In this document: positions 12,567 through 15,060 of the stretch, in pieces
How positions within the stretch are numbered: the first letter of the stretch is position 1
How the letters are laid out: every line of letters begins with the position of its first letter
Assembly: GCF_009931435.1 (NCBI RefSeq)
Contig: NZ_CP043414.1
Reading direction: 5' to 3' (one strand)
Length of the DNA: 64,000 nucleotides
Origin: Escherichia coli
GTDB taxonomy: Bacteria; Pseudomonadota; Gammaproteobacteria; Enterobacterales; Enterobacteriaceae
Position numbers and translations under genes: made by a program
Notes under the pieces: model-generated
Database searches by the model: none
What the model saw: the letters and a program-made list of their open reading frames with translations, nothing else
Told to the model about the DNA's origin: nothing

Positions 12567-12991
12567 ATCCCCTCCAGAAATATGTGACTTATCCTTTACG
12601 CTGGCAGTATAACGGGAAAGGCCGTGCTAATACGTGATGACATCACATTTAAGCATGGCAAATGTCTGAAAAATGAGCGAATAATCGCGTTATACTCCCT
12701 CTTGCTGATAAGTCTGCAAAAACAACAAAATCAAATAATTAGCATGATAAATTATTTTTTATTACGCCTAAAGGATTAAATCTTTTGCTTGCACTACACT
12801 GTCAATCAGACAAATGACTATATGGGGCAACCCGCTGTTGCCCTAAATCAAATTTACTGGATTTATTTATCTGGTGAATGACTCGCCTTCGTTTTTAAAA
12901 TAGCCGCGCATTATTTCCGTCGTCACTTTTTTACGACGACCCTATAAAACGACCATATTTTTCACAGGGTCAATTTTTAATTGAGGTGGAT

Positions 12992-13687
12992 ATGTTCAGA
13001 AAATTAGCAGCTGAATGTTTTGGTACTTTCTGGCTTGTTTTTGGTGGCTGTGGTAGTGCCGTACTGGCCGCAGGCTTCCCGGAATTAGGCATTGGTTTTG
13101 CCGGCGTGGCGCTGGCATTCGGTTTAACCGTTCTGACGATGGCCTTCGCTGTTGGTCATATTTCTGGTGGTCATTTTAACCCGGCGGTCACTATTGGCTT
13201 ATGGGCTGGCGGACGTTTTCCGGCAAAAGAAGTCGTTGGCTACGTAATTGCCCAGGTTGTCGGCGGTATTGTTGCAGCGGCGCTGCTGTATTTAATTGCC
13301 AGTGGTAAAACGGGATTTGACGCGGCAGCCAGCGGTTTTGCTTCTAACGGTTATGGCGAGCATTCACCAGGCGGTTATTCCATGCTTTCCGCGCTGGTAG
13401 TTGAACTGGTATTGAGTGCAGGTTTCTTGCTGGTGATCCACGGCGCAACCGACAAATTCGCTCCGGCGGGTTTTGCGCCAATTGCCATTGGTCTGGCATT
13501 AACGCTGATTCACTTAATCAGTATTCCGGTGACTAACACTTCCGTTAACCCGGCGCGCAGTACTGCGGTTGCCATCTTCCAGGGCGGCTGGGCGTTAGAA
13601 CAACTGTGGTTCTTCTGGGTGGTGCCAATTGTCGGCGGCATTATCGGTGGTCTGATTTACCGGACTCTGCTGGAAAAGCGTAATTAA
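12992..13687 (+). CDS. aqpZ: aquaporin Z
   Basis: 231-aa product from ATG 12992 preceded by GAGGTGGA; two NPA boxes ([14 protein letters not shown]). Confidence 0.93.
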
Positions 13688-13696
13688 TTAACGCAG

Positions 13697-13725
13697 AAGG
13701 CCTGGCGCAATGTCAGGCCTTTTTT
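13697..13725 (+). terminator. rho-independent terminator after aqpZ
   Basis: hairpin aaggcctg...caggcctt followed by T5. Confidence 0.6.
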
Positions 13726-13788
13726 AAATATATTGATTCATCTTCCTGTTGCGCTCCTTGATGTGTTAAGCCACATATAGTCACTGGC

Positions 13789-13990
13789 GCAGGGGGCGGC
13801 CAATCGCCGCCGCCCCCTGCACCCCCGGGCTCTGGCGAACAAAATCGCCGCTGCGCGGTGCCCTCGACTTATCCCTTGCGGCTACCGGGTCGGGCGCGAG
13901 GTAACATCCCGGTAAAACGCGCCCTCAGCCCACATCCATGTGGGCTGCCCCGGCCTTCAGGGAACACCTCGGCGATTTTGACGCCACCAA
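13789..13990. repeat. GC-rich intergenic element with nested palindromes
   Basis: perfect 12-bp inverted arms gcagggggcggc / gccgccccctgc (13789..13820); 8-bp palindrome gcccacat/atgtgggc (13928..13945); outer inverted arms caaaatcgccg (13840..13850) / cggcgattttg (13970..13980). Confidence 0.5.
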
Positions 13991-14160
13991 CACCGGTGCG
14001 GTTTGTAATTAAAGCGCAAGAATATCTTTAAATGAAAATGAATACCCTACCGATCCTTATGCATAACATTTCCTTTTAATTGCAACTTTACTCGTCCTTC
14101 CGCTTTCAGTAGTGTGTCATCGCGCATTTCGACTTCTTTCTTTGCAAGGACTGGTTTTTC

Positions 14161-15060
14161 ATGTTTTCTGGGCTGTTAATCATTCTGGTTCCCCTGATTG
14201 TGGGTTACCTCATTCCGCTTCGCCAAAAAGCTGCATTAAAAGTTATTAATCAGCTATTAAGTTGGATGGTTTACCTCATTCTCTTTTTTATGGGTATCAG
14301 TCTGGCGTTTCTCGATAACCTCGCCAGTAACCTGTTGGCGATTCTGCATTATTCCGCCGTCAGTATTACCGTTATTTTACTGTGTAATATTGCCGCCCTG
14401 ATGTGGCTGGAGCGAGGCCTACCGTGGCGCAACCACCATCAGCAAGAAAAACTCCCGTCACGTATTGCGATGGCGCTGGAGTCCCTCAAGCTCTGCGGTG
14501 TGGTGGTGATTGGCTTTGCTATTGGCCTTAGCGGATTAGGTTTCTTACAACACGCTACGGAAGCCAGCGAATACACGTTAATTCTGCTACTTTTCCTCGT
14601 CGGTATTCAGTTGCGCAATAATGGCATGACCTTAAAGCAGATTGTCCTTAATCGCCGGGGAATGATTGTCGCTGTGGTGGTGGTGGCCAGTTCTTTAATT
14701 GGTGGTTTAATTAACGCCTTTATTCTTGATCTTCCCATCAATACCGCGCTGGCAATGGCTTCCGGTTTCGGCTGGTATTCTCTTTCCGGTATTTTATTGA
14801 CCGAATCTTTTGGTCCGGTAATCGGGAGCGCGGCGTTTTTTAATGATCTGGCCCGTGAGCTGCTTGCTATTATGTTGATCCCTGGGCTGATTCGCCGTAG
14901 CCGCTCTACTGCACTGGGCTTATGCGGTGCGACGTCGATGGATTTCACACTGCCCGTTCTTCAACGTACTGGCGGACTGGATATGGTCCCGGCGGCGATT
15001 GTTCACGGTTTTATTCTTAGCCTGTTAGTGCCGATCCTCATCGCCTTTTTCTCTGCATAA
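14161..15060 (+). CDS. lysO: lysine exporter LysO (YbjE), inner membrane protein
   Basis: 299-aa hydrophobic ORF with ATG at 14161; synteny between aqpZ and hcp. Confidence 0.85.
   Translation: MFSGLLIILVPLIVGYLIPLRQKAALKVINQLLSWMVYLILFFMGISLAFLDNLASNLLAILHYSAVSITVILLCNIAALMWLERGLPWRNHHQQEKLPSRIAMALESLKLCGVVVIGFAIGLSGLGFLQHATEASEYTLILLLFLVGIQLRNNGMTLKQIVLNRRGMIVAVVVVASSLIGGLINAFILDLPINTALAMASGFGWYSLSGILLTESFGPVIGSAAFFNDLARELLAIMLIPGLIRRSRSTALGLCGATSMDFTLPVLQRTGGLDMVPAAIVHGFILSLLVPILIAFFSA

Follow-up and report, generated by a model that had tools for sequence, protein, structure and literature searches.

The GC-rich palindromic block between aqpZ and lysO of Escherichia coli is most probably the core of the known repeat TRIP1a (RRS-lysO) and probably akin in structure to the TwoAYGGAY motif

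Between aqpZ (12986-13687) and lysO (14161-15060), two open reading frames on the plus strand of a 64,000-nucleotide stretch of Escherichia coli DNA (contig NZ_CP043414.1, called the window in the following), the intergenic spacer contains a GC-rich palindromic block at 13789-13990. What kind of element is it? An earlier note had considered an intergenic repeat family other than REP, a structured RNA element or a terminator complex. With 68% GC the block stands out from the adjacent spacer (37-40%) and from the whole window (50%). Three inverted repeats within it are all far beyond chance. The perfect hairpin with 12-bp arms described earlier was found as GCAGGGGGCGGC (13789-13800) and GCCGCCCCCTGC (13809-13820) around a loop of 8 nt, and its arms stretch to 15 nt at 93% (13786-13800 / 13809-13823). 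The outer perfect arms of 11 bp, CAAAATCGCCG (13840-13850) and CGGCGATTTTG (13970-13980), are separated by 119 nt, in accordance with the spacing of about 120 bp initially given. The palindrome that had been assigned arms of 8 bp is also present, but its perfect arms CAGCCCACAT and ATGTGGGCTG are 10 bp long (13926-13935 / 13938-13947, 2-nt spacer).

Both strands fold far better than shuffles. RNA folding of 13780-13995 gave z-scores of -4.6 for the plus and -5.6 for the minus strand, and DNA folding of 13748-14002 gave -4.3 and -4.9, all relative to dinucleotide-preserving shuffles; in each of the four runs (RNA and DNA, both strands) none of the 200 shuffles folded as well. A 57-aa open reading frame with a GTG start at 13858-14031 on the plus strand, inside the repeat and its right flank, is almost certainly spurious.

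Homology to K-12 extends the block to a unit of 255 bp with 65.5% GC (Table 1). The extent of about 200 bp proposed for the GC-rich block was therefore too short for the repeated unit. This unit ends exactly 158 bp before the ATG of lysO and starts 60 bp past the aqpZ stop, compared to 70 bp in K-12, because the K-12 spacer has 10 extra bases. The block first reported is essentially the RRS core, which measures 211 bp instead of 222 bp because of an 11-bp deletion. Since this deletion lies between direct repeats of GCGCA, its exact position is ambiguous. It takes out one arm of the GCGCUCC/GGAGCGC tail stem and is rare: of 5426 complete genomes, only about 7 give an unbroken match over the junction. 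Strain C4 (L004) also carries the deletion allele.

Table 1. Features of the aqpZ-lysO element and of related copies. Positions refer to the window, or to the locus where a locus handle (L number) is given.
Feature	Position	Strand	Basis and remarks
Full TRIP1a unit, 255 bp	13748-14002	-	Homology to the K-12 aqpZ-lysO and yohP-dusC copies, from GTTGCGCTCC to GGTGCGGT
RRS core, 211 bp (222 bp in K-12)	13782-13992	-	Near-identical stretch of the lysO and dusC copies (window aligned with the two K-12 copies)
AT-richer TRIP1a tail	13748-13781	-	Extra stem GCGCUCC...GGAGCGC in other copies (alignment pairs 237-243 with 280-286)
GC hairpin	13786-13823		12 perfect pairs; 8-nt loop, GGCGAUUG on the minus strand
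11-bp deletion site relative to K-12	13787-13792		K-12 CACTGGCGCAAGGAGCGCGCAGGGGG, here CACTGGCGCAGGGGG
G-quadruplex-forming RRS motif GGGGGTGCAGGGGGCGGCGG	13807-13826	-	Exact-string search (both strands); shared in part with an arm of the 12-bp hairpin
TwoAYGGAY-like domain	13832-13990	-	Closed by the outer stem: 11-bp arms and the extension 13832-13836 / 13986-13990
Hairpin B, GGGCGCG...CGCGCCC stem	13892-13924	-	Minus-strand apical region UUUUACCGGGAUGUUACC
Hairpin A, 10-bp stem	13926-13947	-	Minus-strand loop region ACAUGGAUGU; AYGGAY / CsrA-type GGA loop
Opposite-orientation loci, aqpZ-lysO	L005 1904-2178; L034 3881-4156
Opposite-orientation loci, yohP-dusC	L006 1899-2183; L035; L068; L079
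yegH-asmA copies	L094 2046-2314; L021 8745-9012; L078; L087; L067
Paired copies	L017 1965-2123 and 2181-2334	- and +
Paired copies	L084 5417-5575 and 5633-5786	- and +
Paired copies	L075 3852-4009 and 4067-4219	- and +
Paired copies	L030 1849-2005 and 1541-1698	+ and -
Paired copies	L043 9517-9671 and 9308-9460	+ and -

The comparison with catalogued E. coli repeat families led to an element that is already known, so that our analysis is a rediscovery: TRIP1a entered the catalogue of repeats in 1999, and functional work on it as RRS began in 2023. In the intergenic-repeat survey of Rudd 1999, TRIP1 is listed as a separate family with 3 copies in K-12. According to Li et al. 2024 (PMC10888264), TRIP1a has 266 bp and 62-65% GC, with 70 bp between it and the aqpZ stop on one side and 158 bp to the ybjE/lysO start on the other; TRIP1c adjoins yohI/dusC, and TRIP1b is the internally deleted third K-12 copy at putP-efeU (also written putP-ycdN); 1-5 copies per genome occur in both orientations. 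Pham et al. 2023 (PMC10287960) and 2024 (PMC10592627) described RRS, GC-rich repeats of 222 bp located near lysO and near dusC at a distance of about 650 kb from dif in each case, and explicitly equate them with TRIP1. RRS-lysO is one of two replication risk sequences flanking the E. coli terminus region and one of only two programmed gap-forming sites.

The window copy shares with TRIP1a the homology to K-12 over the whole unit, the position downstream of aqpZ, the high GC content and the occurrence in few copies. BLAST alignment of 13740-14015 with the K-12 locus revealed 91.3% identity over 288 aligned columns with gaps counted, nhmmer gave E = 2e-71 for the element, and the core at 13831-13990 (160 nt) is 98.1% identical to K-12-lineage strains. 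Additionally, the G-quadruplex (G4) motif quoted in Pham et al. 2024 (PMC10592627), GGGGGTGCAGGGGGCGGCGG, occurs exactly on the minus strand. Because locus, boundaries, GC content and G4 motif agree with the published description, the block can be assigned to TRIP1a/RRS-lysO; another locus is excluded by the flanking open reading frames and the exact motif match, and none of our results contradicts the assignment. Taken as a whole, the data are best explained by the core of TRIP1a, identical with RRS-lysO, that would act by folding of the template strand and gap formation, to which we assign a probability of roughly 0.9.

The suggestion of a repeat family distinct from REP was thus to the point, the family being TRIP1/RRS. 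With a unit of 255 bp and 1-9 copies per genome the element is unlike REP, and a true REP array, the gltP-yjcO spacer (L091), has no similarity to the TRIP1a unit. This spacer had been considered as the third K-12 copy following a lead from a mutation table and was rejected. BoxC (a 56-bp triplex motif with 33 copies), RSA (150 bp, 6 K-12 copies) and ERIC were set aside as names by their descriptions, as size and copy number do not fit.

The multi-copy nature is evident from BLASTN searches. Of 5426 complete E. coli genomes, all but one (5425) gave megablast matches to the block, at a median of 3 and a maximum of 8 places per genome. A more sensitive search raised the maximum to 9, with the same behaviour for either half of the block. 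K-12 has another complete copy, between yohP and dusC, and its records show the two copies as an inverted pair on opposite replichores; they lie in the regions 915,004-915,288 and 2,229,115-2,229,400. A single-copy sequence without conserved arms, the case that would have spoken against a repeat family, can clearly be dismissed, as the block is multi-copy and its arms are kept via compensatory changes. Neither the RefSeq K-12 record nor any matching E. coli genome record has an annotated feature at the repeat loci. Annotation pipelines leave the locus blank, and flagging it as TRIP1a/RRS-lysO is worthwhile. The identity also explains recurrent low-frequency "mutation" calls in resequencing studies. 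Intergenic mutations of this kind were reported at K-12 positions 915,226 (ybjE/aqpZ), 2,229,177 and 2,229,205 (both yohP/dusC; PMC11510482). These positions fall within TRIP1a and TRIP1c, and the calls are probably due to gene conversion between these copies or to reads mapped to the wrong one. A gltP/yjcO call in the same mutation tables sits in the REP array mentioned above.

Very stable hairpins between two co-oriented genes could also be taken for a transcription terminator or insulator. However, no hairpin of the block is followed by a T-run (the tails are ACCCCCGGG on the plus and GCGCCAGTG on the minus strand), and a scan of 13600-14200 on both strands revealed no terminator-like site; for the element itself, promoter-like sites were likewise absent from either strand. 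Moreover, aqpZ has a hairpin with T-run of its own at 13697-13727, upstream of the element, and the same element is found between convergent genes at yohP-dusC and yegH-asmA. We therefore see next to no likelihood for this function, and the terminator complex of the earlier note was abandoned. The terminator-like hairpin of aqpZ has the form AAGGCCTG-(9 nt)-CAGGCCTT followed by TTTTTT and lies 31 nt upstream of the repeat; it escaped the consensus scan because its loop has 9 nt.

To what extent the fold itself is maintained can be judged from the other copies. The RNAalifold consensus of 26 copies contains 65 pairs, 25 of them with compensatory changes. The stem of the GC hairpin is kept in this way, with GGGGGAGGA/UCCUCCCCC in O157 and CAGGGUGGU/GCCACCCUG at yegH-asmA. 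In hairpin A the loop is invariant and the stem covaries (CCCAC/GUGGG compared to CCGCC/GGCGG and UCGCC/GGCGA), and the tail stem GCGCUCC...GGAGCGC changes to CGUUCAC...GUGAACG at yegH-asmA. At the level of sequence comparison, these compensatory changes show selection on the fold. Such conservation is silent on the strand and on the type of molecule, because pairing is equally preserved for DNA hairpins. G-U outnumbers A-C by 18 to 11 in the pairs shared by both strand predictions and by 105 to 89 in their union. In each of the 26 sequences the minus strand has the more stable fold (mean -141 compared to -125 kcal/mol), which may only reflect its richness in G and U.

The element is variable in orientation. 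At aqpZ-lysO, yohP-dusC and yegH-asmA, Escherichia strains carry it in opposite directions (Table 1); O157:H7 is among many strains with the whole element reversed at yohP-dusC. About 40-60 nt of flank on each side of the reversed alleles are unrelated to the K-12 type. A clean inversion in place was discarded as the origin of these alleles, as the flanks are not reverse complements beyond about 20 nt. The orientation polymorphism at TRIP1a and TRIP1c has already been counted by Li et al. 2024 (PMC10888264), who found 1255 of 4703 TRIP1a copies reversed, documented inversions between TRIP1a and TRIP1c and reported 156 rearrangements.

A further locus, yegH-asmA, is absent from the five TRIP1 loci of that study. 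It holds a more divergent family member of about 84% identity in both orientations, flanked by inverted REP units; K-12 possesses only a truncated, inverted half there (L093 3503-3657). The REP units beside one of these copies (L094 2322-2401 and 1975-2055) gave sub-threshold matches to the Rfam family naRNA4 (37.1 and 29.7 bits, threshold 59.5). In three aqpZ-lysO alleles (L008 1967-2105, L009 1967-2105 and L007 2922-3061) about 137 bp are deleted internally between direct repeats of CCGGGG, which removes the entire two-hairpin domain and retains the GC/G4 hairpin. One of them, L007, is deposited as the 42-kb plasmid pZ1323HEC0475-2, yet contains the chromosomal genes hcr-hcp-lysO-aqpZ-ybjD-ybjX. 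A natural allele of the strain LI60C3 type lacks the TwoAYGGAY core. In Pseudocitrobacter, Kluyvera and an Enterobacteriaceae genome, a copy similar to that of E. coli lies 50-150 nt from a far more diverged inverted copy, so that the pair makes one large composite palindrome. The 11 loci examined in Edaphovirga cremea DSM 105170 (L044-L054) contain over 35 related elements of two subtypes, which form clusters with spacings of a few hundred bases and occur in either orientation; these copies resemble a proliferating miniature repeat and not a two-copy chromosomal landmark.

An essentially selfish or neutral dispersed repeat, similar to a miniature mobile element and devoid of host function, would have recombination between its copies as the main effect. 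The varying copy number, the occurrence of both orientations at one locus with unrelated immediate flanks, the internal deletions, the additional locus at yegH-asmA, the dozens of clustered copies in Edaphovirga cremea and the rearrangements reported by Li et al. (PMC10888264) are in line with this idea. It is opposed by the presence of at least one copy in all complete E. coli genomes but one and by the conserved positions of the two main copies on either side of dif. The two K-12 RRS could also not be deleted jointly without compensating amplification (Pham et al. PMC10287960, PMC10592627). Terminal inverted repeats, target duplications and empty sites were not found, and the compensatory changes described above speak for selection on the fold. 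A purely selfish repeat is hence distinctly unlikely, and TRIP1a/RRS-lysO as a replication element remains the preferred explanation.

Its mode of action has been worked out on the K-12 copies. There, the G-rich strand blocks DNA polymerases when it is the lagging-strand template (Pham et al. PMC10287960, PMC10592627; Kusi-Appauh et al. 2026 PMC13308219), and the resulting gaps of 1.4-2.5 kb load RecA and SSB. Pham et al. (PMC10287960, PMC10592627) reported that the RecA and SSB peaks on single-stranded DNA at lysO and dusC depend on RRS, that RRS stops polymerases at the G4 site, that ectopic RRS give new peaks, and that deletion or inversion of RRS alters global supercoiling. An inverted RRS gave no RecA peak in vivo (Pham et al. 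2024 PMC10592627). In single-molecule experiments, gaps formed at essentially every encounter with the G strand as the lagging-strand template and more rarely in the opposite orientation, which implies folding of the complementary strand as well (Kusi-Appauh et al. 2026 PMC13308219).

For the window allele we infer the same mechanism, which others have shown on the K-12 copies. Once unwound by the replication fork, the G-rich strand of the element, i.e. the minus strand of the window, would fold into a very stable structure, in which a G-quadruplex-prone tract overlapping the 12-bp GC hairpin would be joined by a multi-branched domain of further hairpins. With the folded strand as the lagging-strand template, the polymerase would stall and synthesis would restart downstream, leaving a single-stranded gap of about 1.4-2.5 kb on the lysO side, onto which SSB and RecA would be loaded. 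According to the authors' hypothesis, such programmed gaps may serve as swivels that ease topological stress near replication termination. Separately, the multi-copy repeat is also a substrate for large chromosomal inversions. The G4 strand runs antisense to aqpZ and to lysO, as it does in K-12. The GC skew of the plus strand is -0.04 over the 64-kb window, from which the minus strand is G-rich, nascent-leading-strand sequence, so that the G4 strand should be the lagging-strand template in the window copy. A gap should then run from about 13826 rightwards over the rest of the element and lysO. A possible objection to the mechanism in this allele is the rare 11-bp deletion, which adjoins the GC hairpin.

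The G4 does not universally keep a strict lagging-strand role, because natural strains carry either orientation and the inverted RRS gave no RecA peak. The canonical G4 pattern of four runs of at least three G is absent from both strands of the E. coli copies; the published G4 call for RRS rests on another predictor. In addition, the G tract overlaps a perfect hairpin that is itself kept by compensatory changes. Since the tract is non-canonical and overlaps a preserved hairpin arm, it is a reasonable question whether hairpins may contribute to the polymerase blockage.

The remaining interest of the element lies in a hitherto unreported kinship. The full length of the Rfam model RF01731 (TwoAYGGAY) aligns with 13840-13986 of the minus strand at 27.7 bits (E = 0.066), below the curated gathering threshold of 43 bits. 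The two K-12 copies (30.6 and 30.9 bits) and that of O157 (25.9 bits) are below the threshold as well. Above it are a TRIP1-like copy in Kluyvera genomosp. 3 (L043), which is 82% identical to the window element and reaches 54.2 bits over the full model, and the diverged neighbour copies beside the main copy in Pseudocitrobacter and Kluyvera with 49.2 bits. The closing stem P1 of the motif is present in the window with 11 perfect pairs and an extension of 5 pairs. Of the two AYGGAY loops the window copy has one: the loop of hairpin A, AUGGAU, fits this pattern, whereas that of hairpin B, CGGGAU here and AGGGAU in K-12, does not. Kluyvera has AUGGAU in both hairpins; the apical region of hairpin B reads ACAGGGAUGU in K-12 and CACAUGGAUGUG in Kluyvera.

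Genuine TwoAYGGAY RNAs of Lachnospiraceae (72-79 bits) share an identical hairpin A, CAGCCCACAUGGAUGUGGGCUG. A scan of 100,044 species genomes with the hairpin A 18-mer GCCCACATCCATGTGGGC returned 81 stretches, compared to about 9 expected by chance in 298 Gb, many matches being the single hairpin only. These stretches (L011-L089) span Lachnospiraceae, Shewanella, Thiotrichaceae, Methylobacterium, Rhizobium/Agrobacterium and thaumarchaeal MAGs. When the RRS core was turned into a covariance model, relatives over the whole length were detected in Edaphovirga cremea, with dozens of copies, in Shewanella and in a Thiotrichaceae MAG; in the Lachnospiraceae RNAs the model recognised the two-hairpin part. 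All full-length members have GGA in both loops on differing stems. In the covariance alignment, which was fitted to the model on loci baited with hairpin A and in which most Edaphovirga copies have different stems, 47 of 49 pairs changed on both sides and 87% of the cells were paired, compared to 66% in shuffles and 29-40% in slid controls.

We conclude that the RRS core is probably structurally akin to TwoAYGGAY. That the RRS/TRIP1 core is a diverged member of this class whose GGA loops have a function of their own is a bolder claim, and we consider it doubtful. If true, what selection keeps in Enterobacterales, Shewanella and Thiotrichales would be the two GGA-loop hairpins and the GC hairpin downstream of them, and not the G-quadruplex itself, and many "TwoAYGGAY RNAs" may be elements of DNA whose folding on a single-stranded template disturbs replication. 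Alternatively, RRS would have an additional role, as transcripts or single-stranded gaps that bind proteins of the CsrA type.

A structured RNA is a competing explanation. Transcription of the G-rich strand would give a TwoAYGGAY-class RNA whose GGA loops, in two to three hairpins, bind CsrA or another loop-reading protein, and which would be either a small decoy or a cis-acting element of adjacent transcripts. The SELEX consensus of CsrA is RUACARGGAUGU, which the loop region ACAUGGAUGU resembles. TwoAYGGAY has been proposed as a CsrA binder (PMC4333381). The end-to-end minus-strand match to RF01731, the above-threshold copies of Kluyvera and Pseudocitrobacter, the hairpin A shared with Lachnospiraceae and the covarying stems under constant GGA loops in Edaphovirga, Shewanella and Thiotrichaceae point in the same direction, as does the K-12 dusC copy, whose GGA strand is sense and lies 43 nt past the dusC stop. 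The window copy, however, scores below the Rfam threshold, and its hairpin B loop, CCGGGAUG, is not AYGGAY. Relative to aqpZ and lysO the GGA strand is antisense, neither strand has promoter- or terminator-like sites, and the orientation of the element flips between strains. The covariation comes from the model-fitted, baited alignment and holds equally for DNA hairpins, with the G-U to A-C ratio of 18 to 11 noted above. The literature search yielded no usable data on CsrA binding or transcription at these loci, and the function demonstrated experimentally, that of a replication gap trigger, is at the DNA level. A CsrA-binding RNA thus appears rather unlikely compared to TRIP1a/RRS-lysO acting as a DNA element.

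Neither the RRS paper nor the TRIP1 paper mentions TwoAYGGAY, hairpins or CsrA, and among the papers that mention TwoAYGGAY none concerns RRS or TRIP1. In the part of the Weinberg TwoAYGGAY alignment that was examined, none of six enterobacterial accessions was found, the gamma-proteobacterial members in that part being Psychromonas. The TwoAYGGAY match, the covariation of the fold with kept GGA loops and the yegH-asmA locus were not found in the literature searched. For both fields, the link is a testable lead on which sub-structure (G4, GC hairpin or GGA hairpins) makes the gaps, and it asks whether TwoAYGGAY elements elsewhere are replication elements and not small RNAs.

In comparison with known systems, the closest is TRIP1a of K-12, with which the window copy has locus, boundaries, GC content and multi-copy distribution in common; the 266 bp of K-12 are shortened here by the 11 bp beside the GC hairpin. 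RRS-lysO of K-12 has the same exact G4 motif in the same orientation relative to lysO and has been studied experimentally. REP/BIME, ERIC/IRU, BoxC and RSA are, like TRIP1, intergenic, palindromic and dispersed enterobacterial repeats; REP/BIME differ by hundreds of copies and by units far shorter than 255 bp that are often arrayed. The pilE G4 of Neisseria gonorrhoeae, named by Pham et al. as the sole further gap trigger in bacteria, is G-rich, structure-forming and gap-linked like RRS, but is unrelated in sequence and serves pilin antigenic variation. The RNAs of the CsrB/CsrC type, which sequester CsrA and belong to the same clan as TwoAYGGAY (CL00106), present GGA in hairpin loops as the RRS core does; the window element differs by having only 2-3 GGA sites, no identified promoter or terminator and a variable orientation. 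Similar to the RRS core, TwoAYGGAY (RF01731; Weinberg et al. 2010) consists of a long closing stem with two adjacent GGA-loop hairpins. Its members have AYGGAY in hairpin B, where the E. coli copies have ARGGAY (K-12) or CGGGAU (window), and the E. coli element additionally possesses the GC/G4 hairpin and the tail. Finally, TwoAYGGAY is a class of RNA motifs, whereas the demonstrated activity of the E. coli element is on DNA replication.
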